Shown here piece by piece: positions 1,590 to 32,000 of a stretch of DNA of 32,000 nucleotides. The position numbers were made by a program, and so were the translations under genes. Each line of letters opens with the position of its first letter. Positions within the stretch are counted from its first letter, which is position 1. The notes beneath the pieces are model-generated. The model saw only the letters and a program-made list of their open reading frames with translations, made no database searches and was not told where the DNA came from. The stretch covers positions 5,280,001 to 5,312,000 of the forward strand of contig NC_010296.1 in NCBI RefSeq assembly GCF_000010625.1, given 5' to 3'. Origin of the DNA: Microcystis aeruginosa NIES-843 (GTDB lineage: Bacteria; Cyanobacteriota; Cyanobacteriia; Cyanobacteriales; Microcystaceae).

Positions 1590-2909
1590 CTACTTTTTAA
1601 TCATGTCCTCATAGCGTTGAGACATGACATAGGTTTGAATTTGTTTCGCAGTATCGATCGCCACCCCCACCAGAATTAACAGGGAAGTTGCCCCCAAACC
1701 GCGAAAAGTGGTGACACCGGTGGCGCTTTCTACTACAGTCGGCACAGTAGCCACCAAACTTAAAAAGAGAGCGCCCAAAAGGGTGAGACGATTCAGCACC
1801 CCTTCCAGATAATTAGTAGTAGCGGTTCCTGGTCGAATCCCCGGAATACTGGCCCCCATTTTTTTCAGGTTTTGGGACATATCCTTGGGGTTAACGATCA
1901 GGGAAGCGTAGAAGAAACTAAAACCGAGAATTAGTAAGCTATAAAAAGCCACATAACCCCAACTATCGGGACGCAGAGCATTAACCAACTGAACTAAAAC
2001 CTGACCGACCGGGTTATCCGTGGGTAAAGCTTGCACCAATTGGAAAGGTAACACCAACACTGCCGAGGCGAAAATAATCGGCATAACGCCCCCTTGATTG
2101 AGTCGTAGGGGTAGATAACTGGTTCTTTCCCGATAGAGACGACGACCCACCTGACGACGGGCAGAAACAATCGGAATCCGACGGGTTCCCTCCTGAACAA
2201 AAACAATGCCGATAATCATCACCAAGAAAACCAGCAAGAGAATCACCACTTGAGCGATCGCTTGTCGGCCACCCTGTTGGGCAAAAGTAATCGTATCACC
2301 GAGGGTTTTCGGTAAAACAGCGACAATGTTGACAAAAATCAGCAAAGATGCTCCATTTCCCAGACCGCGTTCTGTGATCAGTTCCGAAATCCACATCACG
2401 AACATAGAACCCGCCACTAAAGCGAGAACCGTAGCGGCGATCGAGGGTAAAGTTCCAGCCACAACGCCGTTAGCCACCAATAAACCGAGAGTAATGCCGA
2501 TACTTTGAATAATTGCCCAACCAAAGGCAATATAACGGGTAATTTGGGCAATTTTTCGCCGTCCTGCTTCTCCTTCATTTTTCTGTAAATCTTCCAAAGA
2601 AGGAAGGGCAGCGGTGAGCAGTTGCACGATAATTGAGGCGTTGATATAGGGAAGAATGCCGAGGGCAAAAATCCCCAAAGTCGATAATCCTCCCCCGGTA
2701 AACAGGTCAAGGATTCCCAAAGCGGCGTTACCTTGAATAATTTCTGCTAATCTTGCCCGATCCAAACCGGGTATCGGTACAAACATCCCAAAACGGAGCA
2801 GAATCAGTAAACCCAATGTAACCAACAAGCGACCGCGTAAACCGGCCGCCTGTGCCATTTGCATAAACGTTTCCTGTGCCGTGGGAGCCTTATCACGACT
2901 GACGACCAT
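1590..2909 (-). CDS. secY: Preprotein translocase subunit SecY
   Basis: 439 aa polytopic membrane protein with a typical SecY sequence. Lies between rplO and adk. Confidence 0.97.
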   Translation of the reverse strand: MVVSRDKAPTAQETFMQMAQAAGLRGRLLVTLGLLILLRFGMFVPIPGLDRARLAEIIQGNAALGILDLFTGGGLSTLGIFALGILPYINASIIVQLLTAALPSLEDLQKNEGEAGRRKIAQITRYIAFGWAIIQSIGITLGLLVANGVVAGTLPSIAATVLALVAGSMFVMWISELITERGLGNGASLLIFVNIVAVLPKTLGDTITFAQQGGRQAIAQVVILLLVFLVMIIGIVFVQEGTRRIPIVSARRQVGRRLYRERTSYLPLRLNQGGVMPIIFASAVLVLPFQLVQALPTDNPVGQVLVQLVNALRPDSWGYVAFYSLLILGFSFFYASLIVNPKDMSQNLKKMGASIPGIRPGTATTNYLEGVLNRLTLLGALFLSLVATVPTVVESATGVTTFRGLGATSLLILVGVAIDTAKQIQTYVMSQRYEDMIKK

Positions 2910-3021
2910 TAACAGTTACCTCTAGTGCAGTTTTTTTATGGGAAAAAGTAATCGAGGGGGAAAACTTTCTCGATTTTTTTAAGATTTCCCCTGTCTTTCT
3001 TATGATATAGCAATCAGGTCT

Positions 3022-3275
3022 TGGGGGTTGGGTGTTAGGGGTTGGGTGTGGGGTGTGGGGTGTGGGGTGTGGGGTGTGGGGTGTAGGGTGTAGGGTGTGG
3101 GGTGTGGGGTGTAGGGTGTAGGGTGTAGGGTGTGGGGAGAACAAAGCTGCCCTTTACCTTTTGCCTTTTGCCTTTTGCCTTTTGCCTTTTGTCTTTTGCC
3201 TTTTGTCTTTTGCCTTTTATCTCCTGTCTCCTGTCTCCTGCCTTCTGCCGACCGCCTTCTGCCGACCGCCTCCGT
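3022..3275. repeat. Composite tandem-repeat block in the rplO-secY spacer
   Basis: Contains (GGGTGTG/GGGTGTA)n at 3022-3137, (CCTTTTG)n at about 3151-3219, (CTCCTGT)x3 at 3221-3241, and a 14-mer ccttctgccgaccg x2 that reaches the rplO stop codon. ORFs 2893..3144, 3000..3290 and 3161..3391 are translations of these repeats. Confidence 0.9.
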
Positions 3276-3718
3276 TAAATTTCTTCCCAAGTACCTTGAG
3301 CGGCGGTAATTTTCTCTTTAGCACTATTGCTAAAAGCAGCGGCCTTCACCTTGAGGGGAACGGTAATTTCACCATCACCCAAAACTTTTAAAGGGCCGTC
3401 GTTGCTGGTGAGAATTTTAGCTTTTAGCAGACTTTCCAGGGTAACTTCCGTATTAGCGGGTAAAGAAGCCAATTTTCTCAGATTAACGATCGTGTATTGA
3501 CGGGGGTTAACCAAAGGAAAATGCTTTAATTTGGGAACCCGACGATAGAGGGGCATTTGTCCCCCCTCAAAACCGGGACGAGTCCCCGTCCCAGAGCGAG
3601 ATTTTTGTCCGCGCATTCCCAGACCGCAACTAGCGCCCTGGCCGGCCGAGACACCCCGTCCCACACGACGACGGCGTTTAGTGGACCCCGGTTGGGGGGC
3701 GATTTCGTGGAGTTTCAT
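3275..3718 (-). CDS. rplO: 50S ribosomal protein L15
   Basis: 147 aa, [22 protein letters not shown]... Operon position fits. Confidence 0.96.
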
Positions 3719-5316: not shown

Positions 5317-5718
5317 TTACCAGATGTAGCAAAGGACTTCGCCGCCAACGTTTTGTTTACGCGCTTCGCGATCGGTCATAATGCCTTTAGAGGTGGAAAC
5401 AATGGCGATGCCAATGCCACCGAGGACGCGCGGTAAGTCTTTACTGTTGGAATAAACTCGTAAACCGGGTTTACTGACTCTGGTGAGGGTAGTAATGATC
5501 GGTTGACGGTTTTTGCCTTTATATTTGAGGGAAAGAACTAATTGAGATTTAATCCCCTCACCCACTTCCTCAAAGTCAGCAATAAAGCCTTCGTCCTTGA
5601 GAACTTGAGCAATACTGCGCGTCATCCGCGTGGTGGGAATTTGAGTAGTGGTCTGCCGAACCGCGCAAGCGTTACGGATGCGGGTCAGCATATCCGAGAT
5701 GGTATCGTTAGCAGACAT
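5317..5718 (-). CDS. rpsH: 30S ribosomal protein S8
   Basis: 133 aa, [17 protein letters not shown]... Confidence 0.96.
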
Positions 5719-5754
5719 GAATTACCTGTTTTTCTCCTAAATTGGGATCAACAT

Positions 5755-5826
5755 CAGTGGTCAGTTATCAGTTATCAGTTATCAGTTATCAGTGGTCAGT
5801 TATCAGTTATCAGTTATCAGTATCAG
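5755..5826 (-). repeat. Heptamer array (CAGTTAT/CAGTGGT)n on plus
   Basis: About 10 units, located in the rplE-rpsH spacer. Confidence 0.9.
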
Positions 5827-5884
5827 ATTTGAGTATTAAGTGAGTAGTATTAAATAGCAGTTTCCTGCTGTCTTTTGACTGAAT

Positions 5885-8260: not shown

Positions 8261-8989
8261 TCAGCCCTCACTAGAGCGATCTTCAAACTGTTGACGGCGA
8301 CGCTGTTGACGGCGCGGTGCTTGAGCGGGAACGGCGGCGGCAATTTCTTCTTGGCCGGGGATAATTTCGCCCTTAAAGATCCAAACTTTCACGCCTAGAA
8401 TCCCGTAGATGGTGCTGGCGGTTTTATAGGAGTAATCAATATCGGCGCGCAGGGTATGCAGGGGAACTCGTCCTTCCCGCACCCATTCAGTCCGAGCGAT
8501 TTCCGCCCCGTTGAGACGACCGCTAACTTGAATTTTGATCCCTTTGACTTCGGCCCTCTGCGCCCGTTGGATGGCCTGGCGGACAACACGACGGAAGGAA
8601 ACCCGTCTTTCTAGTTGTTGGGCGATGTATTCGGCGATCAGGTTGGCATCGGCATCAACGCGAGCCACTTCGATGACGTTAATGCGAATTTGACGCTGGC
8701 CACCGAGGGCTTTTTGTAAACCTAGGCGCAGCTGTTCGATTCCCGTGCCACCACGACCGACGACGACACCGGGTCGGGCGGTATGGATGGAGATATCTAC
8801 TTGATCGGCCTTGCGTTCGATGCGAATATCGGCGATACCGGCATTAGCAAGGTTTTTTTCGACGTACTGACGAATGCGGCGATCTTCTTGCAGTAGTTCG
8901 GGGTAACGTTTCGCGTCGGCATACCAGCAAGATTTATGATCTTTGATAACGCCGAGACGAAAACCGAGGGGATGGATTTTTTGTCCCAT
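8261..8989 (-). CDS. rpsC: 30S ribosomal protein S3
   Basis: 242 aa, [13 protein letters not shown]... Confidence 0.97.
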
Positions 8990-9012
8990 TGTGGTTTTTT
9001 TAGTTAAGGTGA

Positions 9013-9372
9013 TTAGTCTTTGTTGCTAGGAGCGACGGCGACGGTGATATGACAGGTGGGTTTGCGAATTTGGTAGGCGCGCCCCTGGGCCCGGGGTCGA
9101 AAACGTTTTAGGGTCGGTCCGCCATCGGCAAAGGCTTGGCTAACTACCAAAGTGGCGGGATCGAGTCCTTCGTTATGTTCGGCGTTGGCAACGGCGGAAC
9201 GCAGGACTTTCAGGATGGGATCACAGGCCCGGTAGGGCATGAATTCGAGAATAATTAGGGCTTCCCGATAGGAGCGACCGCGGATCTGATCGAGTACCCG
9301 TCTGACTTTCAGGGGTGACATCCGAATATAGCGGGCGATCGCTTTGACTTCGTTAGAGGTATCGATGGTCAT
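9013..9372 (-). CDS. rplV: 50S ribosomal protein L22
   Basis: 119 aa with typical L22 sequence. Confidence 0.95.
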
Positions 9373-9374
9373 TT

Positions 9375-9449
9375 CAGTTATCAGTTATCAGTTATCAGTT
9401 ATCAGTCATCAGTCATCAGTGATCAGTGATCAGTTATCGGTTATCAGTC
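9375..9449 (-). repeat. Heptamer array (CAGTTAT/CAGTCAT/CAGTGAT)n on plus
   Basis: About 10.5 units in the rpsS-rplV spacer. It ends 2 nt from the rplV ATG (9372..9370). Confidence 0.9.
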
Positions 9450-9504
9450 TTGCTGGTTTATGATCACGACTATCTAGCTGACGACTGAGGGAGTAGCGGC
9501 TGAT

Positions 9505-9786
9505 TTATTTCCGTCCTGCTTTTTTGTCGCTCTTGGCGTGGCCGCGGAAGGTGCGGGTGGGAGCGAATTCACCGAGTTTATGACCGACCATCTGCTCGGA
9601 AACGTAGACGGGAACGTGCTGTTTGCCGTTGTGAACGGCGATCGTGTGACCGACCATATCGGGAATGATTGTCGAGGCCCGGGACCAAGTTTTAATCACT
9701 TGTTTACTGCCCTGGGCGTTGAGTTTTTCGATTTTTTCCATCAGGTGGCCGGCGACAAATGGCCCCTTTTTCAGTGAACGACCCAT
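9505..9786 (-). CDS. rpsS: 30S ribosomal protein S19
   Basis: 93 aa, [15 protein letters not shown]... Confidence 0.97.
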
Positions 9787-9816
9787 AATTTTCAGTCAAA
9801 AGTAAAGTAATAATTT

Positions 9817-10650
9817 CTAACCCTGGGTACGACGGCGTACGATGAGATCGCTACTGCGTTTTTTCTTGTTGCGAGTTTTGCGGCCGAGGGCGGGTTTACC
9901 CCAGGGAGTCATCGGGCCGGAACGTCCGATCGGAGCGCGACCCTCTCCACCTCCGTGCGGGTGATCCACTGGGTTCATGACGCTACCCCGAACATGAGGT
10001 CGTTGACCGCGGTGACGGGTACGGCCGGCTTTACCGAGACTGATATTTCTCGCTTCGGCGTTACCGACTTTTCCGATGGTGGCGTAGCATTCACGCCGGA
10101 TCATGCGGACTTCTTTGGAGGGGAGGCGGATGGTAACGTAATCGCCTTCTTTGGCTACCACTTGGGCGAAACCACCGGCAGCCCGCACCATTTGACCACC
10201 GCGACCGGGGACGAGTTCGATGTTATGAACTTCTGTCCCTAGGGGGATGCGACTTAAGGGCAGGGCATTACCGACCTCGAAGGGAGCGTTTTCTCCGGCG
10301 ATGACGGTATCACCAACGCCTAAACCGGCGGGGGCGATGATGTAGCGTTTTTCCCCGTCTTTGTAGAAAAGCAGGGCAATGCGGGCGTTACGGTTAGGAT
10401 CGTACTCGATCGCCGCTACTTTGGCCGGAATATCCCGTTTATCGCGACGAAAATCGATAATCCGGTAGAGGCGTTTATGACCGCCGCCCCGGTGACGACT
10501 GGTAACGACACCGCGATTATTACGCCCCTGTTTACTGTGTTTGTGATGAGTTAGGGACTTTTCCGGTTCGGTTTTGGTGATCTCTTTAAAGTCGGAGATG
10601 GCCGCCTGCCTTGTCCCGGGGGTTAAAGGTCTAAAAGAGCGAATACCCAT
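9817..10650 (-). CDS. rplB: 50S ribosomal protein L2
   Basis: 277 aa with typical L2 sequence. Confidence 0.97.
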
Positions 10651-19598: not shown

Positions 19599-19801
19599 CT
19601 AGACCTCTTGTAAAAATCAAAAATTGTTGTTAGGGTCAGGAGTCAGTAGCCGGTCGTCAGGAGTCAGGAGAATTAAAAATGAATAATAATCAATTAAATG
19701 GTCTATTTACCGACTTTAGGCAATTTAATCCTTATTTTTGCCCTTTTTCAACCCTCAAGTAGTTGGGTTTTTGGGGTTTTGGGGTTTTAGTTGAAATTTC
19801 C

Positions 19802-19865
19802 CTGATAACTGATAACTTACCCACTGATAACTGATAACTGATAACTGATAACTGATAACTGATAA
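19802..19865 (+). repeat. Heptamer array (CTGATAA)n = (ATAACTG)n in the plus sense
   Basis: Eight units with one interruption. It ends 4 nt before the GTG start of the CDF gene. Confidence 0.9.
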
Positions 19866-19869
19866 TCCT

Positions 19870-20796
19870 GTGGCTGTTTTAAAAGATAATCGGGCTACCG
19901 TCCAAAAAGTTCTCTGGATCACCCTACTGCTGAACATTTTGGTTATGGCGATCAAAGCGGGGGTGGGTTTGAGGATTGGTGCTTTAAGTCTGCAAGCGGA
20001 TGCTCTCCATAGTGTCACCGATAGTGCCAATAATGTCTTGGGATTAGTAGCGATGCGGTTTTCCTCTCCCTATCCAGATCGAGATCATCCCTACGGACAT
20101 CTGAAATACGAAGCGATCGGAGCTTTAGCGATCGCCGCATTTTTGGGGATTGCCTGTTTTGAAATCTTGCAAGGGGCGGTCATGAGTATTATCAAAGGAG
20201 GCAAACCCGTCGAGATTGCAGGTCCTGAGTTATGGCTATTAATTATCGTTTTAGGGGTGAATATTTTTGTCACCTATTATGAAAGATCGGTGGGGCAGCG
20301 TGTCGGTAGTGCGATTTTGATTGCCGATGCTCGTCATACCATGAGTGATGTGTGGGTGACAATTACGGTTTTATTGGGTTTAGTCGGGGTTTGGGTGGGC
20401 AATACGGCTAATATTCCCCAATTACAATGGTTAGATGTGATTTTGTCCTTTCCCGTCGCTTTTTTGGTGTTTAGCAGTGGTTGGAAAGTCCTGATGGAGA
20501 ATTTACCTTTTTTAGTGGATGAAATGGCGATCGCTCCTGAGGTGATTCATCAAATTGTGATGGAGGTGCCGGGGGTGCTTAATTGTCATGCGATCGCGTC
20601 TCGGGGAGTGGTGGGAAGACAGGTATTTATAGAAATGCACCTAGTTGTCTCCGCTCAAGATGTGGAAACTGCTCACGCAATCACGGAAGCGGTAGAAGCA
20701 AGATTAACCCAACAATTTAGCCCTGTGAGAATTTTAATTCACGTTGAACCGCCGGATTATCGTTCCGATCAGATCACTTTTGATGAAGAAGTGTGA
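19870..20796 (+). CDS. Cation diffusion facilitator family transporter
   Basis: 308 aa with HSVTD and HTMSD (HxxxD) motifs in transmembrane helices. GTG start. Confidence 0.88.
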
Positions 20797-22729: not shown

Positions 22730-23758
22730 TTAGGAAAACAGGGAAGGGGTTTCATCCTCGACCCTCTCCAGTTGCTCTAATTGCTGCCAAACTTTGGCGA
22801 GTAAAGTGGTTAATCCGGCTCCTGTCACGGCGGAAATAGTCAAAATCTCGGCATTGGTTATTTTAGCAAACTGCTTTTGATAGTTATCTATCGTTTCCTC
22901 GTCCACAGCATCAATTTTGTTGAAAACCAGTATTTGCGATCGCTTTTCTAATCCCCGACCATAGGCGGCTAATTCCCCTTGAATAATTTGATAATCGGCG
23001 ATCGGGTCTTCTGATGTCAAGGAGACAAGATGAATTAACAGGCGTGTGCGTTCGATATGGCGCAAAAATTCGTGTCCTAAGCCGATTCCTAGGTGCGCTC
23101 CCTCGATTAATCCAGGAATATCGGCGAATACCGTCCCATCTCCCGTGGGTTTGCGTACCACTCCCAAGTTAGGAATGAGAGTCGTAAAGGGATAATCGGC
23201 GATTTTGGGACGAGCAGAGGAAACGGCCGAGATTAGGGTGGATTTTCCCGCATTGGGCAGTCCGATAATGCCCACTTCCGCTAATAACTTCAATTCTAGG
23301 CGTAAATGGCGTTTTTCTCCCTCTAAACCGGGTAAAGCGTATTCGGGTGCGCGATTATTATTACTTAAAAAGTGGCGGTTGCCTAATCCCCCTTTTCCCC
23401 CGGCAGCCACGATTAAAGTCTGTTCGGGAGTGACCAAATCGCCGATAATTTCCTCGCTATCGAGATCGTAAACCACGGTACCACAGGGAACTTTAATAAT
23501 GCGATCGCTACCGTTGGCTCCGGTGCAGTTGTTGGGGCCGCCCCGTTTACCGTCATCGGCCTTAAAATAGCGACTATACTGGAAATCTAGCAGGGTTTGC
23601 AGGTTCTGAGTCGCCACGAAAATCACCGAACCACCTTTTCCCCCATTACCTCCGGCCGGACCGCCGGCGGGGACGTATTTTTCCCGACGGAAAGCGACAA
23701 TTCCATCACCTCCCTTACCCCCTTCTACTTCTATTTCGGCGCGATCAATAAACTGCAT
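22730..23758 (-). CDS. obg: GTPase Obg/CgtA
   Basis: 342 aa with a Gly-rich Obg fold at the N-terminus and G motifs GLPNAGKST and DIPGLIEGA. Confidence 0.96.
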
Positions 23759-23802
23759 AAGACTAAGTAGTTAAAGTGAAAAAATGCTCAAGATCAAAGC
23801 TG

Positions 23803-24481
23803 TTATAGGTTAACATCTTGCCAATTTAAAGCTGCTGCGAATCCCTGAAAATGTTTGACATTGGTAGTAGCGATGACTAGATAACGGCTCGGATATTGTT
23901 TTTTTAATAACTGCCAATGAGCAAGAATAATAATATCTACGTCAATATTGTAATTATCAGCCGTTTGTTGGCCAATCTTTCGAGTTTCTACCCAAATTTG
24001 TGACGATTCTAACATCACCTCGGTATCTAAATTTAAAAAATCAATGACATTGCGTAATTCATTAAGATTATCTAGGCTATTAAAGGAATTTTTCTTGACC
24101 GATTCTAATAATCGGCTTCTTCTGACTTCATAATCACAGCTATCGGAACTAACTACATAGGGTTTGCTGAATAAATCTAAAAACCTTGTTGGATAAGACT
24201 TTTAGACTTGTTTTCCCTCAAAAAGTGCCGACCTTTGGAGTGATTGGGGGGAAAATCCCTGGACTTTTTCCCTGAAAATTAGGTAATTGACCACCTGAAA
24301 ATCGGTAAAACCCCACGCCCCACACCCCACACCCCACACCCTGCCCCTAGGAAAAGCTTTTTCAGCAAACCCTACATAAGCACCCTTAGACAAAAGTGAA
24401 TAAGGCCAATCTTCCCAGTTTACCCGCTTTTTTAGGATGAGTTAATCAACCCAAAACCCCCGAATCGATAAAGACAATCAT
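23803..24481 (-). pseudogene. PIN-domain (VapC-like) toxin gene carrying three lesions
   Basis: ATG 24481 overlaps the upstream antitoxin stop as ATGA. The N-terminus reads MIVFIDSGVLG, then an in-frame TGA (24448..24446). The frame changes across the T6/A6 run at 24428-24433. A 213-bp MITE is inserted at 24160-24372. The remaining frame continues as ...YVVSSDSCDYEVRRS...LESSQIW...ATTNVKHF. Confidence 0.8.
24160..24372. mobile_element. 213-bp MITE, copy 1
   Basis: Terminal inverted repeats GGGTTTGCTGAATAAA / GGGTTTGCTGAAAAAG (reverse complement of the right end). Flanked by 6-bp direct repeats TACATA (24154-24159 and 24373-24378). Contains an internal (CCCCACA)n tract. Confidence 0.85.
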
Positions 24482-24726
24482 CCTTGGCTATAAAGCTTTG
24501 AACCCAAAGGACGATCATTATCAATCGCAGTCTGAAAATTGAGGAAAGACTGGGAAATTTCTTGGTCTTGCTCATCGGTTATTTGTGACCGTTTTTGTCG
24601 TCTTTGTTCTAAGATAGCCAAAGCCGAACGATTTCGTTTAATTTGCTCTTTTCGATCCCAATCTGGATAATTGACAAGTTTGGCTTTTAAGGTTCTTCCG
24701 AACTTACACTGTAGAAAAGTCCCCAA
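24478..24726 (-). CDS. Putative antitoxin partner of the PIN toxin
   Basis: 82 aa or shorter (the TTG start is uncertain). Its stop overlaps the toxin ATG. Small and charged, with a typical upstream-antitoxin position. Confidence 0.5.
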   Translation of the reverse strand: MGTFLQCKFGRTLKAKLVNYPDWDRKEQIKRNRSALAILEQRRQKRSQITDEQDQEISQSFLNFQTAIDNDRPLGSKLYSQG

Positions 24727-25378
24727 GCTCCCTCTCTGTCCAGCAATGTTCTAAAGTTGATAAATATCAATCTAACAAAAACTCAAAGCCTTATTGTACA
24801 AGCTTTACAAGCATAAGTTGTTGATAGTTTTGCATGACAGGTTCGGTAGAGCCGGTTTTAATTGATTCATCTCTTTAACTGGAAATTGTCTATCATCATC
24901 TTAGCCGATCCTTTGACCAAGAACAAGAGGTAACAGGGGGTGCATCTCATTTTTGTAAATCTACTGAGTTGGGATTTTTAAAGGGAAACTCTCTGCTAAA
25001 ATTGGGCATTACTTCCGATTTTATCACTCAATCAAAGCCTTAACCCCCCCGTCAGGGGAGGAGCTTCGTCCCCCGAACCTTTGACTAACTAATAGAGTTC
25101 AACCTCTTAATTTTATTTTAACAGACAACAATTATAAAATTTTATTTTGATAATAAATCGGGTCAATTTTTCTTTTCAGCGATCGCCCTATAGCTGACCG
25201 CATAATTCTTTTGTACTAAACTTTGAGGTTTGCAATAGGGGGTAAATACAGAAACGAAAATTCTCTCTAAATCTCCTCAAATTTCCAGAAACCTTCTGAC
25301 TCCCTCTAGCTAGATGGTTAAAATAAGTAGCTTTTAAGGGAGATAGATTTTGAGAGGGTTATCAGCTACAATCAAGAC

Positions 25379-25565
25379 ATGAAGCTAGTTGAACGCCATA
25401 TCATACTAAATCCCATCCTTGCTGGTCAGAAATTGACCGAGCTGCTTTTTTGTCAAAAAATCTGTTCAATCTAGCTAATTACCACTATCGCCAATATTTC
25501 TTTGTTGAACACAAGAAATTAAATTTTAATCAACTCTATCACCAAGTAGCTCAAAGTTCTGATTT
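25379..25565 (+). pseudogene. tnpB: 5' remnant of an IS200/IS605-family tnpB (OrfB) gene
   Basis: MKLVERHII... then, after a frameshift near the T-run at about 25443-25450, ...SKNLFNLANYHYRQYFF..KLNFNQLY. From memory this matches TnpB N-termini. It is truncated at about 25565, where the island repeat cassette begins. Confidence 0.6.
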
Positions 25566-25634
25566 ACTATTTTATCGGATTGCCGCGCTTGCCGAAGGCA
25601 CTGGGGAGCAGACTGCTGATTCAATTGGGTAAGG
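25564..25634 (-). repeat. Island cassette, copy A (orphan, no downstream P gene)
   Basis: Near-identical to 27968-28050 and 29461-29543, but it lacks the gene-proximal about 12 nt. Confidence 0.85.
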
Positions 25635-25659
25635 CAAACCCTAATTAGTGAGAGGAGAA

Positions 25660-25759
25660 TCACCACCACAACCGACTCACTTCCCTAATACCTTGATACA
25701 CTTCTCTTAAGGCGACCAGTCCCCCAAAATGAAGGATTAAAGGCAGGTTAGAAATAGTT
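25660..25759 (-). pseudogene. 3' fragment of small gene X (homologue of 28076..28264)
   Basis: Encodes ...LILHFGGLVALREVYQGIREVSRLWW*. It has no start codon, and the homology ends at the hicA 3' end. Confidence 0.45.
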
Positions 25760-25972
25760 TTAGAGTAATTTTAAGAATTCTTCGATAGTTAAACCCGCTT
25801 CTTTAACAATCCCTGCCATTGTATAAGCATTAACCGGATTTGCTCGTGGAATGGCGATAGTCTGTTCTCCATTTGTCATAGTAATATGTTTTCTCTGTCT
25901 AGTGATGCGGAATCCCGCTTTTTCAAAGGCATTAACAGTGCGTAGATGATTAATTCTGGGTAATTTTGGCCT
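25760..25972 (-). pseudogene. hicA: HicA-family toxin, copy 1, separated from hicB by a MITE
   Basis: Encodes RPKLPRINHLRTVNAFEKAGFRITRQRKHITMTNGEQTIAIPRANPVNAYTMAGIVKEAGLTIEEFLKLL*. It has no start codon. The MITE inserted 5 nt upstream of the first conserved codon. Confidence 0.7.
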
Positions 25973-25977
25973 ACTTA

Positions 25978-26190
25978 GGGGCTGCTGAAAAAGTTTTTCG
26001 TGGGGGCAGGGTGTGGGGTGTGGGGTGTGGGGTGTGGGGTTTTACCCATTTTCAGGTGGTCAATTACCTAATTTTCAGGGAAAAAATCCCTAAATTTTCC
26101 CCCCAATCACTCCAATGGTAGGCACTTTTTCAGGGAAAAAAAGTCTAAAAGCCTTATCCAACAAGGTTTTTAGATTTATTCAGCAAACCC
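25978..26190. mobile_element. 213-bp MITE, copy 2 (inverted relative to copy 1)
   Basis: Flanked by TACTTA direct repeats (25972-25977 and 26191-26196). The uninterrupted paralogous junction at 29881-29886 has a single TACTTA, so it serves as an empty site. Confidence 0.9.
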
Positions 26191-26193
26191 TAC

Positions 26194-26388
26194 TTATCCT
26201 ACTTCTACATAACGCACTTCCGCATCTTTGTTTAATTCTTCAATTGTCTCTAAATAGTCTTGTATCGCTTCTTTGATATTTTCTATAGCTTCTGCTTCAG
26301 TGTCTCCCTGTGACCAACATCCGGGTAAACTGGGACACCAAATTGCATAACCTTCTTCGCTTTGTTTGAGTCGAACTTGATAGCGCAT
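26194..26388 (-). CDS. hicB: HicB-family antitoxin (UPF0150-like), copy 1
   Basis: 64 aa, MRYQVRLKQSEEGYAIWCPSLPGCWSQGDTEAEAIENIKEAI... Confidence 0.85.
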   Translation of the reverse strand: MRYQVRLKQSEEGYAIWCPSLPGCWSQGDTEAEAIENIKEAIQDYLETIEELNKDAEVRYVEVG

Positions 26389-26495
26389 AAATAGTGGCTG
26401 TTAGTTTGTAACTTTTATACTAAGGTCTAATTGATTAAAGATAAAGTATTGATAATTGTCCATTATCCCTGAGAAAAGCGTTCGCCTTTGAGGTT

Positions 26496-27188
26496 TTAAT
26501 AGATTTGAGGTTGAAAATTATCGGGAATATCTAATTCAAATACTTGGTCATGAATCCGAGCCACATAAAACCCTTCTTGGAGAATTTTTTCCCGTAATCC
26601 TGGTGATAAATCAACCGCCGCTAATATGCCATAGAGTTTTTTATCTTTGTGTTCAGAGAAAAAGCTACGAAACCGTTGTAAAATACTTTTTAATTGTGTA
26701 ATAGATTCCTCTTTGGCATGACTTTTAACCTCAACGATATAGGCGGTATTTAGCTCACCATTGGTATAGGCAAGGACATCAATTTCTAGGTGTTGTCCAT
26801 TTTTACTGACTCGCACACTGGGACTAACAACTTCCATACCAAAGCGTTGCCTGAGAATCGTTTCCATTGAGGGAAGGGCAAGTCCTTCGGTAAAGCTGCC
26901 GAATTTTGCCCCGAGTCCCCCAATTTGCTGTCCTAATTCTTTGAGTTGTTTGTCAGTTTTCTTCTGTTGTTGGGCGTTTTCCTTCTGTTGTTGACTAACT
27001 TCCTTCAATAGTAGGTCAGTCTCCTTCAGTTGTTTGTCAGTTTCCTTGAGTTGTTGAGCGTTTTCTTTCTGTTGTTGACTGACTTCCTTGAGTTGTTTGT
27101 CAGTTTCTTTTTGAGCAGCAGTTAATTCGGCTTGAGCAGTTGCTAATTCGGCTAGGATTCGCCATACGTCTTCTGATGTAGTCGTCAT
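26496..27188 (-). CDS. Coiled-coil + PD-(D/E)XK-like protein, paralogue P1 (DUF3782-like N-terminus, from memory)
   Basis: 230 aa. Residues about 24-85 form a Q/K/E-rich heptad repeat. The C-terminal domain has LEID137VL...IVE153VK155SH. Confidence 0.85.
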   Translation of the reverse strand: MTTTSEDVWRILAELATAQAELTAAQKETDKQLKEVSQQQKENAQQLKETDKQLKETDLLLKEVSQQQKENAQQQKKTDKQLKELGQQIGGLGAKFGSFTEGLALPSMETILRQRFGMEVVSPSVRVSKNGQHLEIDVLAYTNGELNTAYIVEVKSHAKEESITQLKSILQRFRSFFSEHKDKKLYGILAAVDLSPGLREKILQEGFYVARIHDQVFELDIPDNFQPQIY

Positions 27189-27301
27189 AGATGATTTTTT
27201 CTCTCTGATTTGGTCTATTACTATTTTACTGAATTTTGCCGATTCATGAATAAGAGAGTGTTTTTTCCTTTGGGGAAGATAGAGCGATAGCCTTTGATGT
27301 T

Positions 27302-27952
27302 TTAATAGGTTTGAGGTTGAAAATTATCGGGAATATCTAATTCAAATACTTGGTCATGAATCCGAGCCACATAAAACCCTTCTTGGAGAATTTTTTCCCG
27401 TAATCCTGGTGATAAATCAACCGCCGCTAATATGCCATAGAGTTTTTTATCTTTGTGTTCAGAGAAAAAGCTACGAAACCGTTGTAAAATACTTTTTAAT
27501 TGTGTAATAGATTCCTCTTTGGCATGACTTTTAACCTCAACGATATAGGCGGTATTTAGCTCACCATTGGTATAGGCAAGGACATCAATTTCTAGGTGTT
27601 GTCCATTTTTACTGACTCGCACACTGGGACTAACAACTTCCATACCAAAGCGTTGTCTGAGAATCGTTTCCATTGAGGGGAGAGCAAGTCCTTCGGTAAA
27701 GCTGCCGAATTTGGCTCCGAGTCCCCCAATTTGTTTGCCCAGTTCTTTGAGTTGTTTGTCAGTTTTCTGCTGTTGTCGGTCAGTTTCCTTGATTTGTTGG
27801 GCGTTTTCCTTCTGTTGTTGACTGACTTCCTTCAATAGTAGGTCAGTTTCCTTGAGTTGTTTGTCAGTTTCTTTTTGAGCAGCAGTCAATTCGGCTTGAG
27901 CAGTCGCTAATTCGGCTAAGATTCGCCATACGTCTTCTGATGTAGTTGCCAT
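27302..27952 (-). CDS. Coiled-coil + PD-(D/E)XK-like protein, paralogue P2
   Basis: 216 aa. From GGLGAKFG onward the C-terminal domain matches P1 in protein sequence except at the penultimate residue (T in P2, I in P1). Confidence 0.85.
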   Translation of the reverse strand: MATTSEDVWRILAELATAQAELTAAQKETDKQLKETDLLLKEVSQQQKENAQQIKETDRQQQKTDKQLKELGKQIGGLGAKFGSFTEGLALPSMETILRQRFGMEVVSPSVRVSKNGQHLEIDVLAYTNGELNTAYIVEVKSHAKEESITQLKSILQRFRSFFSEHKDKKLYGILAAVDLSPGLREKILQEGFYVARIHDQVFELDIPDNFQPQTY

Positions 27953-27967
27953 AGATGATTTTTTCCC

Positions 27968-28050
27968 GATGTCACCTATTCACTATTTTATTGGATTTCT
28001 GCGCTTGCCGAAGGCACTGGGGAGCAGACTGCTGATTCAATTGGGTAAGG
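27968..28050 (-). repeat. Island cassette, copy B (upstream of P2), promoter-like
   Basis: 83 bp. On the minus strand it contains CCAATAAAATAGTGAATAGGTGACATC with a TAAAAT -10-like hexamer about 30 nt before the P2 ATG. Confidence 0.8.
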
Positions 28051-28075
28051 TGGAGGCTAATTCATAGAACAAGAA

Positions 28076-28264
28076 TCACCGCCACCAGCGACTAACATCC
28101 CTAATCCCTTGATACACTTCTCTTAAGGCGACCAGTCCACCAAAATGAAGGATTAAAGGGACTAAGTTGGGAATAGTTTCGAGGGAAGAAGGACGAGTGA
28201 GACTCCCCAAAGCTTGAAGGGTATTTTCCCAGAAGGATAGGTCAACATGGTTAGGCGTTAACAC
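28076..28264 (-). CDS. Small hypothetical protein (gene X), the only full-length copy
   Basis: 62 aa with a GTG start. Its C-terminal roughly 27 aa are conserved at protein level in two truncated copies. I recognise no family. Confidence 0.4.
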   Translation of the reverse strand: MLTPNHVDLSFWENTLQALGSLTRPSSLETIPNLVPLILHFGGLVALREVYQGIRDVSRWWR

Positions 28265-28310
28265 CTGAGTTATAATTGGAACGAAAATTAACTAAGGCAG
28301 TTGTTCTCAA

Positions 28311-28511
28311 ATGAAATTAAAGGAAAGGTATATCACCGATGAGCAGGGTAATCGAATAGGTGTTCTTTTAGATATAGAAGAATATCAGAAACTGCTGGAA
28401 GAATCGGAGGAGTTAGATGCCATTAGAGCCTATGATTTAGCTGTCTCAGGTGAGGATGATGAAATTCCTTTTGAAGCAGCGATCACTGAAATTGAAAATA
28501 GCCAGCAATGA
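28311..28511 (+). CDS. Phd/YefM/RelB-like antitoxin
   Basis: 66 aa, MKLKERYITDEQGNRIGVLLDIEEYQKLLE..., with an acidic C-terminus. Its stop overlaps the toxin ATG as ATGA. Confidence 0.65.
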   Translation: MKLKERYITDEQGNRIGVLLDIEEYQKLLEESEELDAIRAYDLAVSGEDDEIPFEAAITEIENSQQ

Positions 28512-28761
28512 GTTACAATATTACTATTAAAAAACGTGCTTCTAAGGCTTTAGCAAATCTCCCAAAAGATGATTATCAAAAATTCGAGATGGCATTAGAG
28601 AATTAGCCGAAAATCCAAGACCATCAGGATGTCTAAAACTGACAGTAAGAGAAGGTTGGCGGGTTCGGATTGGAGTTTATCGAATTATTTATGGTATCGA
28701 TGATTCAGAAAAGAAGGTGATTGTTCTTGATATTGGGCATCGAAAGGATATTTACCGCTAA
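28508..28761 (+). pseudogene. RelE/ParE-family toxin with a frameshift in an A-run
   Basis: Reads MSYNITIKKRASKALANLPKDDYQK, then a premature TAG at 28614-28616. Adding one A to the A5 run at 28578-28582 restores ...IRDGIRELAENPRPSGCLKLTVREGWRVRIGVYRIIYGIDDSEKKVIVLDIGHRKDIYR*. Confidence 0.8.
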
Positions 28762-28815
28762 ATACAAGCAATCATCCCTCACAATATCAGAGCAAAAGCG
28801 ATCACCTTTGATGTT

Positions 28816-29445
28816 TTAATAGATTTGAGGTTGAAAATTATCAGGAATATCGAGTTCAAATACTTGGTCATGAATCCGAGCCACATAAAACCCTTCTTGC
28901 AGAATTTTTTCGCGTAATTCGTTCGATAAGTCAACCGATGCTAGTATGCCATAGAGTTTTTTGTCTTTGTGTTCAGGAAAAAAGCGGCGAAACCGTTGCA
29001 AAATACTTTTTAATTGTGTAATAGACTCTTCTCTGGCATGACTTTTAACCTCAACGATATAGGCAGTATTTAGCTCACCATTGGTATAGGCAAGGACATC
29101 AATTTCTAGGTGTTGTCCATCTTTACTGACTCGCACACTGGGACTAACCACTTCCATGCCAAAGCGTTGTCTGAGAATCGTTTCCATTGAGGGGAGAGCA
29201 AGTCCTTCGGTAAAGCTGCCGAATTTGGCTCCGAGTCCCCCAATTTGTTTACCTAATTCTCTGAGTTGTCGGTCGGTTTCCTGTTGTCGTCGCTCGGTTT
29301 CCTTCTGTTGTTGGGCGTTTTCCTTCTGTTGTTGACTAACTTCCTTCAGTTGTTTGTCAGTTTCTTTTTGAGCAGCAGTTAATTCAGCTTGAGCAGTCGC
29401 TAATTCGGCTAAGAGTCGCCATACGTCTTCTGATGTAGTTGCCAT
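28816..29445 (-). CDS. Coiled-coil + PD-(D/E)XK-like protein, paralogue P3
   Basis: 209 aa. This is the most diverged copy, but the same D...ExK motif is retained. Confidence 0.85.
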   Translation of the reverse strand: MATTSEDVWRLLAELATAQAELTAAQKETDKQLKEVSQQQKENAQQQKETERRQQETDRQLRELGKQIGGLGAKFGSFTEGLALPSMETILRQRFGMEVVSPSVRVSKDGQHLEIDVLAYTNGELNTAYIVEVKSHAREESITQLKSILQRFRRFFPEHKDKKLYGILASVDLSNELREKILQEGFYVARIHDQVFELDIPDNFQPQIY

Positions 29446-29460
29446 AGATAATTTTTTCCC

Positions 29461-29543
29461 GATGTCACCTATTCACTATTTTATCGGATTGCCACGCTTG
29501 CCGAAGGCACTGGGGAGCAGACTGCTGATTCAATTGGATAAGG
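29461..29543 (-). repeat. Island cassette, copy C (upstream of P3)
   Basis: 83 bp, near-identical to copy B. Confidence 0.8.
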
Positions 29544-29568
29544 CGGAGGCTAATTCATAGAACAAAAA

Positions 29569-29668
29569 TCACCGCCACCAGCGACTAACATCTTTAATAC
29601 TTTGATACACTTCTCTTAAAGCTACCTCCCCCCCAAAATGAAGGATTAAAAGCAGGTTAGAAATAGTT
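29569..29668 (-). pseudogene. 3' fragment of small gene X
   Basis: Encodes ...LILHFGGEVALREVYQSIKDVSRWWR*. It is truncated at the same junction with hicA as copy A. Confidence 0.45.
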
Positions 29669-29887
29669 TTAGAGTAATTCTAAGAATTCTTCGATAGTTA
29701 AACCCGCTTCTTTAACAATCCCTGCCATTGTATAAGCATTAACCGGATTTGCTCGTGGAATGGTGATAGTCTGTTCTCCATTTGTCATAGTAATATGTTT
29801 TCTCTGTCTAGTGATGCGGAATCCCGCTTTTTCAAAGGCATTAACAGCGCGTAGATGATTAATTCCGGGTAATTTTGGCCTACTTAT
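29669..29887 (-). CDS. hicA: HicA-family toxin, copy 2, with no canonical start codon (possible AUA start)
   Basis: Reads (I)SRPKLPGINHLRAVNAFEKAGFRITRQRKHITMTNGEQTITIPRANPVNAYTMAGIVKEAGLTIEEFLELL*. No ATG, GTG or TTG lies between the upstream in-frame stop and the conserved N-terminus. The ATA at 29887..29885 overlaps the hicB TAA as ATAA. Confidence 0.6.
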   Translation of the reverse strand: MSRPKLPGINHLRAVNAFEKAGFRITRQRKHITMTNGEQTITIPRANPVNAYTMAGIVKEAGLTIEEFLELL

Positions 29888-30078
29888 TCTACTTCTACAT
29901 AACGCACTTCCGCATCTTTGTTTAACTCTTCAATTGTCTCTAAATAGTCTTGTATCGCTTCTTTGATATTTTCTATAGCTTCTGCTTCAGTGTCTCCCTG
30001 TGACCAACATCCGGGTAAACTGGGACACCAAATTGCATAACCTTCTTCGCTTTGTTTGAGTCGAACTTGATAGCGCAT
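29884..30078 (-). CDS. hicB: HicB-family antitoxin, copy 2
   Basis: 64 aa. It differs from copy 1 only at the last residue. Confidence 0.85.
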   Translation of the reverse strand: MRYQVRLKQSEEGYAIWCPSLPGCWSQGDTEAEAIENIKEAIQDYLETIEELNKDAEVRYVEVE

Positions 30079-30151
30079 AAATAGTTACTGTAGTATTTGC
30101 TAGAGTAGGAGCATTCCATTTGAGATAATTTATCTATCTCTTTATACTAAA

Positions 30152-30529
30152 CTAATGTGTATTAAGCCAGTGGCTTGCTTGTTCTACAAATACTGTGGCG
30201 TATTCTAAGGCAATTTTTGTTTGTTCCCTAGTTATTTCAATAACTTGATCATAATCTCCTAATTGTCGTAAATCATAGGTAATTCTTAATGCTTTTGATA
30301 GTTCTAATGATAATTCACCTGTTTGAATAAAATGTTGAGAAAATTGCTGTCGTACCCCTCGATGACTGCGAGTATTGATATTTTTAACTATTAACAGAGC
30401 TTGGACTGTACAATAAATGGCATAATAGCAACGAGAAATACAAGCACGATAATAATTTTTTTCAAGTAATAGGGTGGCCGCTTCTAATTCTTCATTAGCT
30501 TGATTGATATAGGACGAAATTTGGTTCAC
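30152..30529 (-). CDS. HEPN-domain protein (toxin of an MNT-HEPN pair)
   Basis: 125 aa and all-helical in character. The ...SHRGVRQQF... and LRQLGDYD segments are typical of small HEPN proteins (from memory). Its GTG start overlaps the MNT stop as GTGA. Confidence 0.75.
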   Translation of the reverse strand: MNQISSYINQANEELEAATLLLEKNYYRACISRCYYAIYCTVQALLIVKNINTRSHRGVRQQFSQHFIQTGELSLELSKALRITYDLRQLGDYDQVIEITREQTKIALEYATVFVEQASHWLNTH

Positions 30530-30852
30530 AGGACAATCCCTTCTCGGCGAATATTGTCCATTAATGGGGTTTGTCGATGAACAAAGTCTTCATCGGCGAT
30601 GGGAATCAAAGAAATGAAGGTATTATATTTAAGGTCTAGTTGAGTAGCGATGTCTGCCATCCGAATCACTTCATCTCCAGGGGAAATGGGCCCCTTTAAT
30701 ACGACCATAATATCAATATCTGAGTCCTCATTGGCGTTACCCCGCGCTTGTGAACCAAAAAGGATGAGTTTTACTAACCGTTTTCCATAAAACTTTGCTA
30801 ATTCTTGGCGAAATTCTTGTAGTATGGGCATTAGGATTTGTAATTGAGCCAT
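30526..30852 (-). CDS. Minimal nucleotidyltransferase (MNT) antitoxin
   Basis: 108 aa with the motif GSQARGNANEDSDIDIMVV (GSxxRG...DxD). Confidence 0.85.
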   Translation of the reverse strand: MAQLQILMPILQEFRQELAKFYGKRLVKLILFGSQARGNANEDSDIDIMVVLKGPISPGDEVIRMADIATQLDLKYNTFISLIPIADEDFVHRQTPLMDNIRREGIVL

Positions 30853-30898
30853 GATTTTATTACTTAGAAATTATTTTTTGTAATAAATTGTATTGATG

Positions 30899-30930
30899 GA
30901 TGTCACTTATTCACTATTTTATCGGATTTT
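30899..30930 (-). repeat. Island cassette core, copy D (upstream of MNT-HEPN)
   Basis: gatgtcacttattcactattttatcggattt matches the gene-proximal roughly 31 bp of cassettes B and C with one mismatch. Confidence 0.75.
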
Positions 30931-31037
30931 TGCGATTGCGTAGGGAGTGTGGAAAGATGGGGAGGAATGCGATCGCCAATGAAATGTGGATGGGTCATTC
31001 ATTCGACGGCTCATAGCGTTCTAAACTTTTAATAAAA

Positions 31038-31259
31038 TCATCGTTTTTCTTCTCGCCATGCTGCTTGACGGATAGATTCAGGGGTGATATTTCTGTTTTC
31101 CCACAATCCTGCTAGGGCAAAGAAGTCTTGCTCGTTATCAGATAATGTTGTTTGATCTTCGATGATTTCTACAGAGTCAACAAAATCTAAAGCAGTTAAA
31201 ATTTTAGAGAGTGTTTCTGCTTTTTCTTGGTCACGAATGTGTACGATTAGTTGTTTCAT
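31038..31259 (-). CDS. Small acidic protein, antitoxin-like, with no adjacent toxin
   Basis: 73 aa. From memory, the C-terminal FFALAGLWENRNITPESIRQAAWR resembles small cyanobacterial proteins found upstream of PIN toxins. Confidence 0.35.
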   Translation of the reverse strand: MKQLIVHIRDQEKAETLSKILTALDFVDSVEIIEDQTTLSDNEQDFFALAGLWENRNITPESIRQAAWREEKR

Positions 31260-31286
31260 GGTAGTTTATTTTGCATTGATTTGGTA

Positions 31287-31781
31287 TTAATGATCATTGT
31301 CTAATTCTGTTTTTAGCCAATTAAGAATCGGAGAACTAATACGAATTCCATAATCAACTAACTGTTGTGATAAATCTAAAATTTCTTGTTTAGATAGATA
31401 ACCTGCATAAAAACCAACCAAGAGAATTCCTAATGTTCCTTTGACGGGTAATTCCATAGCTTTGGCAACTCTTCTTGCTAATTTCTCATCTATAATTACC
31501 CAGTCTGGTTTGATTGAAATTGCCAAGAGAATAACTTCTAATTCTCCTCGATCTAATCCTAGTAATAGCGGTTCAAGAGGAGATGATGATGCAACTTCTT
31601 GAGCTTGAATCCAATTGGCATTTTTGAGTTCTTTTGCCCCCGGTTTATTATCTCCAGCGATGACAATTTCTTGATAAACTGCCCAAGGAATAATCACTTC
31701 ATTAAATAGCTGATTAAGAAGATCTAATTGATTAATCAAAGATAAGGCGATGATCGGTGTAGAATTAACAATTATCTTCAT
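31287..31781 (-). CDS. DUF3368 (PIN-like) nucleic-acid-binding protein
   Basis: 164 aa, MKIIVNSTPIIALSLINQLDLL..., with the VKGTLGILL motif. Confidence 0.75.
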   Translation of the reverse strand: MKIIVNSTPIIALSLINQLDLLNQLFNEVIIPWAVYQEIVIAGDNKPGAKELKNANWIQAQEVASSSPLEPLLLGLDRGELEVILLAISIKPDWVIIDEKLARRVAKAMELPVKGTLGILLVGFYAGYLSKQEILDLSQQLVDYGIRISSPILNWLKTELDNDH

Positions 31782-32000
31782 TCTCTTTGATTTTTTTGGC
31801 TAATTTACGGCTGGTTTGTATTTCTGATTCCCATTCTTCTGCTGTGTAATCAATAATGGAAAAACCATACTCAGAGAGAAGTGTATAAAATGTATATTTA
31901 TCGCATCCTAATACTTGTGCGCCGATTCCTGCTGAAATTTTTCCTTCTTGATAAAGATGCCCTAATGTATAAATTATGACTTTACGAGAGAATGCTTCTT
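31765..32000 (-). CDS. UPF0175-family small protein (putative antitoxin of DUF3368), partial
   Basis: The minus-strand frame is open to the window edge. It reads ...LGHLYQEGKISAGIGAQVLGCDKYTFYTLLSEYGFSIIDYTAEEWESEIQTSRKLAKKIKENEDNC*. Its 3' end overlaps the DUF3368 start by 17 nt. Confidence 0.65.
   Translation of the reverse strand, partial: EAFSRKVIIYTLGHLYQEGKISAGIGAQVLGCDKYTFYTLLSEYGFSIIDYTAEEWESEIQTSRKLAKKIKENEDNC

Follow-up and report, generated by a model that had tools for sequence, protein, structure and literature searches.

Tandem genes for coiled-coil-stalked PD-(D/E)XK proteins of the DUF3782 family in a variable island of Microcystis aeruginosa NIES-843

Microcystis forms blooms of ecological importance and has an exceptionally fluid genome. 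We analyzed a 32,000-nucleotide (nt) stretch of Microcystis aeruginosa NIES-843 (contig NC_010296.1, positions 5,280,001 to 5,312,000), referred to below as the window, for three genes designated P1, P2 and P3. As described in the initial annotation of this stretch, open reading frames (ORFs) and alignment agreed on three same-strand genes of 230, 216 and 209 amino acids (aa) with one architecture, which consists of a heptad coiled-coil stalk, a Gly-rich linker and a globular head (Table 1). The N-terminal cap, the GGLGAKFGSFTEGLALP linker and the segments LEIDVLAY (E135/D137, in P1 numbering as throughout) and AYIVEVKSH (E153/K155) were likewise all present in P1-P3. Identity to P1 was 97% and 91% at the amino-acid level for the other two proteins, with a range of 91-97% among the three, and their differences in length were made up of whole 7- and 21-residue blocks within the stalk. 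The genes belong to an island of small genes that spans 8 kb and follows a ribosomal-protein operon and obg, and a tblastn search detected only these three family copies in the window. P2 has an identical (100%) counterpart in Microcystis viridis NIES-102 (AP019314.1), annotated as 'DUF3782 domain-containing protein [Microcystis]', and the genome of that strain runs colinear with the window but for a few indels.

The head (P1 residues 86-230) was modelled by AlphaFold2 (AF2) with a predicted local distance difference test score (pLDDT) of 92-97 and a predicted template modelling score (pTM) of 0.82. In this model, the globular part of approximately 130 residues follows the order alpha1-beta1-beta2-beta3-alpha2-beta4-alpha3-beta5-beta6 (H-EEE-H-E-H-EE), with elements H11-29, E35-44, E47-57, E63-72, H75-91 and E99-108 in model numbering, all at pLDDT >92. 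E101 is placed in helix 11-29 (alpha1), D137 in strand 47-57 (beta2) and both E153 and K155 in strand 63-72 (beta3), while Q165, a glutamine on alpha2, is a further active-site candidate. A profile search of the Protein Data Bank (PDB) with the whole-protein alignment returned spurious matches to coiled coils and designed helices only, so that a search by fold was required. All top matches of the head in the Foldseek comparison with the PDB were PD-(D/E)XK nucleases, led by NucS (2vld, E 1.8e-5) and followed by EndoMS (5gke), Cdn1, Card1 and Can2, with AF1548, Cas4 SSO0001, VC1899 and R2 RLE domains among the other matches. The structural matches in BFVD were PD-(D/E)XK proteins as well, and the sub-threshold profile matches of the isolated head all fell into PD-(D/E)XK families (YhcG_C, NERD, UPF0102, NucS and CARF_PDDEXK). 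As modelled, the head has the hallmarks of this superfamily, namely the core fold, the Asp on beta2, the (D/E)xK on beta3 and the Glu on alpha1, and the PD-(D/E)XK architecture suggested earlier from motifs is supported by the AF2 model and Foldseek alike.

The putative catalytic residues were conserved throughout the family. Among 121 representatives of clusters at 50% identity, E101 was present in all 121, and the three positions singled out in the initial annotation, D137, E153 and K155, were kept in 119, 118 and 120, respectively; E135 and Q165 were kept in 112 and 97. The ratio of nonsynonymous to synonymous substitution (dN/dS) of the head-coding DNA had a median of 0.12 over 2545 pairwise comparisons and ranged from 0.08 to 0.14 among P1-P3; the copies are therefore kept as working proteins and the head is not diversifying. 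P1-P3 and their relatives have a head with a restriction-endonuclease core, conserved E101, D137, E153 and K155 and strong purifying selection. The 'diversification' that had been attributed to the copies applies to stalk length alone and not to the head domain.

Counted back from the linker, the heptads of the stalk have two core positions spaced 3/4, one occupied by L, Q or I and the other by T, L, V or N, and Glu and Lys at the flanking positions. The stalk, which accounts for 33-39% of the length of P1-P3, repeats regularly in heptads and has a core that is polar in part. The full-length AF2 model of P3 comprises a single helix (residues 5-67), an unstructured linker (68-78) and the head (79-209). 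Confidence in the stalk helix was low in this monomer model, as would be expected for one strand of a coiled coil. The linker (QIGGLGxKFG) is predicted to be unstructured (pLDDT <50), yet it is among the most conserved parts of the protein, with G97 invariant and G90 present in 110 of the 121 representatives.

At the DNA level, the stalks contain imperfect tandem repeats of 21 nt, equivalent to one heptad (Table 1), and the lengths of the proteins followed this unit. All 120 of the closest clusters at 90% identity had lengths of 209+7k aa (k = 0-5), and the segment from GGLG to the C-terminus measured 141 residues in 116 of the 116 clusters with the exact GGLG motif. Stalks of the Microcystis type were 33, 47, 54, 61, 68, 75, 82 or 89 residues long, with one exception (72) among 52 copies. 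In four strains, the gene that follows MNT-HEPN-hicBA at the orthologous position encodes 223, 216, 209 or 202 aa. Evidently, mutations in stalk length are gains and losses of 21-nt units. Since keeping the frame alone would permit any multiple of three, the strict multiple of 21 would stem from the repeat mechanism, from selection for heptad phase or from the two combined.

With 32.6, 31.3 and 32.8 bits for P1, P2 and P3 against a gathering threshold of 24.4, the proteins are matched by DUF3782 (PF12644), a family that the initial annotation had named. The match spans residues 62-121 of P1, corresponding to the last heptads, the Gly-rich linker and helix alpha1, and the N-terminal cap lies outside. 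Among 67 divergent relatives, DUF3782 was matched by 62 (E<=0.05), NucS_C by 8, DUF6602 by 8 and PDDEXK_10 by 5 (best E 1.4e-5). Some relatives of P1-P3 also have a faint listing for DUF8196 (PF26618). PF07788 (PDDEXK_10/DUF1626) matched neither P1-P3 at E<=1 nor the isolated head at E<=10, and the NucS equivalog of NCBIfam was scored at 17-19 bits against a cutoff of 216. Because P1-P3 lack a PF07788 match and few relatives match PDDEXK_10 or NucS_C, the profiles place the window proteins as DUF3782 members and a sister lineage of PDDEXK_10/NucS_C, outside PF07788. The likeness to PDDEXK_10/DUF1626 drawn in the initial annotation came close, as the layout of coiled coil and PD-(D/E)XK domain is common to both, but it did not amount to membership, with only weak matches even in the five relatives. 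The name 'chordopoxvirus fusion protein', given there as a frequent misannotation, was absent from the source names of the relatives and from the searchable literature; that such proteins have no established function agrees with the same literature.

This architecture is already in print (2007, 2012 and 2016) for coiled-coil PD-(D/E)XK 'endonucleases' of unknown function. DUF1626 was described as a PD-(D/E)XK domain with an N-terminal coiled coil (Knizewski et al., 2007; PMC1913061) and later as a family of unknown function with a patchy distribution resembling horizontal gene transfer and a cyanobacterial clade (Steczkiewicz et al., 2012; PMC3424549). PDDEXK_10/DUF1626 (PF07788, COG5493) resembles the window proteins in both respects, but the Lys of its motif III is often replaced by Thr (PMC1913061), whereas K155 is nearly invariant here. 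The DUF3782-type coiled-coil stalk on a PD-(D/E)XK head was reported by Hartmann et al. (2016, eLife; PMC4786415), with plain heptad stalks in bacterial members; the window proteins share this layout but lack the nonad/beta-layer stalks of the crenarchaeal members.

The best structural match was the C-terminal catalytic domain of NucS/EndoMS (2vld, 5gke and 5gkj; E 2e-5 to 8e-5, TM-score 0.46-0.53), which shares the D...ExK layout of the active site and weak sequence matches with the window proteins. NucS differs in having an N-terminal beta-barrel domain for DNA binding and dimerisation where the window proteins have the coiled coil, and in being single-copy and vertically inherited. The head is also structurally similar to Card1, Can2 and Cdn1, ancillary CARF nucleases of type III CRISPR systems (E 4e-4 to 9e-4, TM-score approximately 0.5), and the motif region of the window proteins has a weak PADLOC match to CARF_PDDEXK. 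Unlike these nucleases, P1-P3 have neither a CARF sensor nor a CRISPR neighbourhood, the coiled coil replacing the ligand-binding domain. RmuC, which limits recombination, has the same two-part layout of coiled coil and PD-(D/E)XK domain, but is larger, usually membrane-anchored and single-copy. No Pfam RmuC match was obtained for the window proteins.

A search with the head only yielded 868 cluster representatives at E<=0.001, 367 of them at E<=1e-10, and among the matches listed all were small proteins of 98-304 aa without fusions to other domains. In species-representative genomes, 439 relatives matched two family peptides. Cyanobacterial carriers include Microcystis, Snowella, Merismopediaceae, Crocosphaera, Dolichospermum, Pseudanabaena, Leptolyngbyaceae and Nodosilinea, while Chromatiaceae, Competibacteraceae and Methylococcaceae carry the family beyond the cyanobacteria. 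Between cyanobacteria and purple sulfur bacteria and the like, the heads are 73-77% identical, so that the family is nearly as similar between phyla as within cyanobacteria, a degree of similarity that would be hard to explain without horizontal transfer. A single copy was located on a plasmid (Sulfuricystis, adjoining a helicase) and a single one on a viral contig (IMG/VR UViG_3300044951_002702, 730-1254 of locus L083). The viral copy encodes 174 aa with a short stalk and a head of 71% identity. Genes for the small and large terminase subunits, the portal and the phage head follow approximately 500 nt downstream of it. GenBank phages contained no family members. With this one IMG/VR contig and no PHROG match of the window proteins, a phage origin was rejected.

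Tandem arrays recurred in the family. The largest, in Microcystis sp. BLCC-F210 (NZ_CP169647.1 1174093-1186527; locus L006), consists of six head-to-tail copies of 216, 230, 230, 230, 202 and 209 aa. Other arrays had four copies (locus L008) or three and one partial copy (L019), and paired copies occurred in Crocosphaera, Dolichospermum and Pseudanabaena. Stalk length was heterogeneous in 12 of 14 arrays. Two complete Microcystis genomes contained at least 11 and at least 8 copies, which are unusually high numbers.

P2 and P3 are each preceded by a copy of an upstream cassette, as previously noted, within which a 30-nt promoter-like motif (AATCCAATAAAATAGTGAATAGGTGACATC) is preserved with 0-1 mismatch (0 expected by chance). 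Its 24-nt core CCGATAAAATAGTGAATAGGTGAC, which includes TAAAAT, lies 18 nt before the ATG of P2, P3 and the first-in-array genes at seven other Microcystis loci, as well as 49 nt before the MNT gene. The motif is common to P2, P3 and the MNT/HEPN operon and joins unrelated cassettes of the island via a shared regulatory-like element. A scan for consensus sigma-70 promoters did not flag it and found fewer sites than in shuffles; since the motif was missed, the promoter reading draws on its position, its conservation and the TAAAAT hexamer. Together with the hairpin upstream, the motif would constitute a dedicated promoter insulated from upstream transcription. Rfam returned nothing for 23500-32000 at E<=1, and the cassette therefore corresponds to no known RNA.

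The 'degenerate' cassette ascribed to P1 was not confirmed. The P2-P1 junction (19 nt after the stop codon and 38 nt before the ATG) recurs as the same spacer in arrays at at least eight other loci, because of which it is regarded as the standard intra-array junction and not as a decayed cassette. As this spacer is without a predicted terminator, P1 may be co-transcribed with P2. A third cassette copy is followed by unrelated sequence, in which no decayed fourth P gene was found; this copy points to either the loss of a P gene or a separate duplication of the hicBA-cassette segment.

Several toxin-antitoxin (TA) genes surround P1-P3 (Table 1). The RelB-like gene is an orphan antitoxin beside a pseudogenised toxin. 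Each hicA, 72 aa as called in NIES-102, overlaps hicB by 4 nt and has ATA as the called start, with no in-frame ATG, GTG or TTG before an internal ATG, from which a product of just 39 aa would result; translation of the toxin may be weak or require coupling. The element between hicB1 and hicA1, which resembles a miniature inverted-repeat transposable element (MITE), has a second, inverted copy with 93% identity 1.6 kb away (24162-24367). NIES-102 is without the first of these, and eight NIES-102 bases align on both of its sides, suggesting a target-site duplication. Short repeats of the heptanucleotide type at 2893-3290, 5700-5832 and 19755-20030 (ribosomal-operon intergenic regions and elsewhere) translate as PTPHTLH... 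in spurious ORFs and are repeat clutter of a kind typical for cyanobacteria, not genes.

In NIES-102, an extra 1.3 kb lies inside the P2 cassette (window position ~28120; 8520-9826 of the NIES-102 locus L084) and a 93-nt insertion lies in the HEPN gene (window ~30305; L084 6239-6333), which is called at 75 aa compared to 125 aa in the window. Even between these very close strains, the island varies by indels. Past the high-coordinate end of the window, NIES-102 encodes Trypco2 and a 1126-aa trypsin-NB-ARC-TPR protein (L084 36-3828), a STAND-type conflict pair, and the flank of its TA island also holds Phd/ParE and UPF0175/DUF3368 pairs.

Table 1. Genes and sequence features of the P1-P3 island (window coordinates)
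Feature	Position	Strand	Description
P1	26496-27188	-	ORF, 230 aa; stalk 89 residues (~12 heptads and cap), linker, 141-aa head (coded by 26499-26921)
P2	27302-27952	-	ORF, 216 aa; stalk 75 residues
P3	28816-29445	-	ORF, 209 aa; stalk 68 residues
21-nt repeats, P1 stalk	26937-27107	-	imperfect tandem repeats of one heptad, ~8 units
21-nt repeats, P2 stalk	27743-27871	-	~6 units
21-nt repeats, P3 stalk	29265-29354	-	~4-5 units
Promoter-like motif upstream of P2	27968-27997	-	TAAAAT -10-like hexamer; 24-nt core ends 18 nt before ATG
Promoter-like motif upstream of P3	29461-29490	-	24-nt core ends 18 nt before ATG
Promoter-like motif upstream of MNT/HEPN operon	30899-30928	-	1 mismatch
P2-P1 intra-array spacer	27189-27301	-	weaker TAAAAT-containing motif, no predicted terminator
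Terminator-like hairpin, P2 cassette	28074-28093	-	5' of promoter-like motif
Terminator-like hairpin, P3 cassette	29567-29586	-	5' of promoter-like motif
Upstream cassette of P3	29471-29770	-	hicA 3' end, remnant ORF tail, hairpin, promoter-like motif
Upstream cassette of P2	27978-28277	-	further copy of the P3 cassette
Third cassette copy	25562-25861	-	hicA tail, hairpin region, weakened motif; unrelated sequence follows, no P gene
hicB-like genes	26194-26388 and 29884-30078		each followed by hicA
hicA, two copies	29669-29887 and 25760-25978	-	weak Pfam HicA_toxin; follows each hicB
MITE-like element	25978-26188		211 nt; GGGTGTG heptanucleotide repeats; between hicB1 and hicA1
RelB-like antitoxin	28311-28511	+	intact
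RelE/ParE-type toxin, frameshifted	28508-28606 and 28594-28761	+	N-terminal 32 aa and other 55 aa in another frame
HEPN	30152-30529		125 aa
MNT	30526-30852		paired with HEPN
DUF3368/PIN-like gene	31287-31781		

To determine the context of the family at large, ORFs were called in 79 loci and the nearest non-family gene on each side was taken, which left 119 neighbours after removal of near-duplicates. These matched 245 Pfam families, none of which recurred more than three times. HicB, ParE-like and HI1420-type genes were sporadic (at most 2-3), approximately ten neighbours matched assorted PADLOC models, once each and with no genomic baseline for comparison, and no conserved adjacent antitoxin gene was present among the 119. 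A conserved operon partner was rejected on this basis. Solitary genes were found in four lineages, adjoining murB in Lamprocystis, between RF-1 and galT in Snowella, between a TPP enzyme and an FMN dehydrogenase in Geminocystis, and in the fourth between FAA hydrolase and histidine phosphatase genes, with a BsoBI-type restriction-modification pair approximately 1 kb upstream. The TA island described in the initial annotation is present in the window, but in view of the census and the solitary copies it is not general. The TA genes around P1-P3 would reflect the variable island of Microcystis and not a functional partnership; the TA and defence setting is a local Microcystis feature and provides no evidence on function.

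Compared at the nucleotide level, independent loci are similar from approximately 14 nt ahead of the ATG to 0-2 nt past the stop codon and no further. Neither this comparison nor the neighbour census revealed inverted repeats, a transposase or extended flanks that accompany the gene. Carriage as a passenger of a transposon, insertion sequence or MITE was rejected, with no conserved flanks and no transposase recurring among the neighbours. As units the genes are self-sufficient: they bring their own promoter-like element, and no partner gene is conserved beside them.

We consider P1-P3 to be, very probably, stalked PD-(D/E)XK nucleases. The proposed protein would be cytoplasmic, with a metal-dependent PD-(D/E)XK head carried by an 11-residue flexible Gly-rich linker on an N-terminal parallel coiled-coil stalk. 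The stalk would oligomerise the protein and bring two or three heads together for nucleic-acid cleavage; association would be parallel, with trimers suggested by the polar Q/T/N core and by the solved relative of the family, and dimers possible. Arrays may have grown, and stalks changed in length, by unequal recombination or slippage between copies and 21-nt repeats. We favour genetic conflict over core DNA metabolism as the setting of the genes, which would encode either a nuclease that acts alone against mobile elements or a selfish nuclease, because the distribution is patchy, multi-copy, strain-variable and cross-phylum. This conflict role by itself remains tentative, at somewhat short of an even chance. 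For the combined statement of a stalked PD-(D/E)XK nuclease with a conflict role, we arrive at a probability of roughly 0.55.

Several points weigh against this interpretation. P1-P3 have no match in PADLOC-DB v2 above noise, the best (E ~1e-4) falling either in the coiled coils of LmuB/JetC or, for CARF_PDDEXK, in the motif region, and the lack of a PHROG match counts in the same direction, as does the absence of a consistent defence or mobile-element context among the 119 neighbours. Strong purifying selection and solitary placement among housekeeping genes suit a cellular function equally well. The AF2 models are of single chains and depict the stalk as a monomer. Either DNA or RNA could be the substrate as far as the sequence goes, and the searchable literature holds no functional study and no biochemical or genetic data on any member.

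The first alternative is a cellular nuclease of DNA repair or recombination, similar to NucS/EndoMS or RmuC, in which the stalk would make the heads dimerise on DNA that is damaged, mismatched or branched. Among solved structures the NucS/EndoMS catalytic domains come closest, NucS is weakly matched in NCBIfam and NucS_C in 8 of 67 relatives, the layout of RmuC is the same, and both the strong purifying selection and the many solitary copies among housekeeping genes are in keeping with such a role. On the other hand, the NucS equivalog score is far below its cutoff, the N-terminal DNA-binding domain of NucS is absent, and the family is patchily distributed with near-identical similarity across phyla. 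Copies number at least 8-11 per Microcystis genome, in arrays, and both copy number and stalk length vary between strains at one orthologous position. Because this patchy, multi-copy and strain-variable pattern is atypical of core repair genes, we regard a repair function as unlikely.

Similarly, the genes could be selfish, free-standing endonuclease genes of the homing type, which cut a chromosomal site without the gene so that repair copies the ORF in. PD-(D/E)XK homing endonucleases exist, for example I-Ssp6803I. It would fit this explanation that the ORF alone is the conserved unit, that it is inserted between unrelated housekeeping genes, that it is multi-copy and crosses phyla, and that one copy adjoins a phage terminase, a classic site for homing genes. 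However, known homing endonucleases have neither head-to-tail tandem arrays nor a conserved stalk for oligomerisation, and decay usually sets in once a homing gene is fixed, in contrast to the old and diverged copies of this family, which retain a dN/dS of approximately 0.1. Phages contributed the one IMG/VR contig and none from GenBank. Homing is likewise given a low probability.

A toxin of a TA or abortive-infection pair, with HicB, RelB or MNT as the antidote encoded by a neighbouring small gene, is suggested by the window itself, where the copies are interleaved with hicBA, relB/parE and MNT/HEPN and where P2, P3 and the MNT/HEPN operon have the same promoter-like motif; archaeal HEPN-MNT-REase(DUF1626) operons have also been noted in the literature. 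Such a pairing is highly improbable for the family, as no neighbour family recurred more than three times in the census, no small partner gene accompanies the solitary copies of other genera, and arrays contain up to six nuclease genes without an interspersed antidote. Least credible of all is a non-catalytic coiled-coil scaffold or filament protein with a dead nuclease fold that binds DNA. It would suit the coiled coil that takes up the N-terminal third to half of the protein and the labels 'EnvC' or tropomyosin-like that some sources attach to relatives, but 97-100% of divergent members retain each of the four catalytic residues, unlike inactive derivatives.

Within the interpretation as stalked nucleases with a conflict role, a further step can be contemplated, which we rate as quite unlikely. 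Stalk length would itself be functional, and the arrays would provide graded stalked nucleases with heads approximately 5-15 nm from a common N-terminal cap as a single-gene immune or selfish system that has so far escaped recognition. The copies might then be separate homomers of different reach or mixed oligomers, with repeat-driven stalk length as the variable element.

The exact-heptad quantisation of stalk length is new here, as are the recurrent tandem arrays of up to six copies with mixed stalk lengths, the cross-phylum similarity of the head, the family-wide figures on conservation and selection, and the absence of any conserved partner gene. Coiled-coil PD-(D/E)XK proteins of the DUF3782/DUF1626 type have been predicted nucleases for nearly twenty years without a member of known role. 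For these proteins, the analysis supplies an experimentally tractable definition, namely a head model of high confidence together with four specified catalytic residues that are supported across the family, and removes the TA partnership as a misleading lead. It also adds two testable peculiarities, the exact heptad length ladders within arrays and the probable transfer across phyla. If the family were to consist of repair enzymes, its amplification in Microcystis would need explaining; if it represents a standalone defence or selfish nuclease, it would be a very compact single-gene addition to the conflict repertoire.

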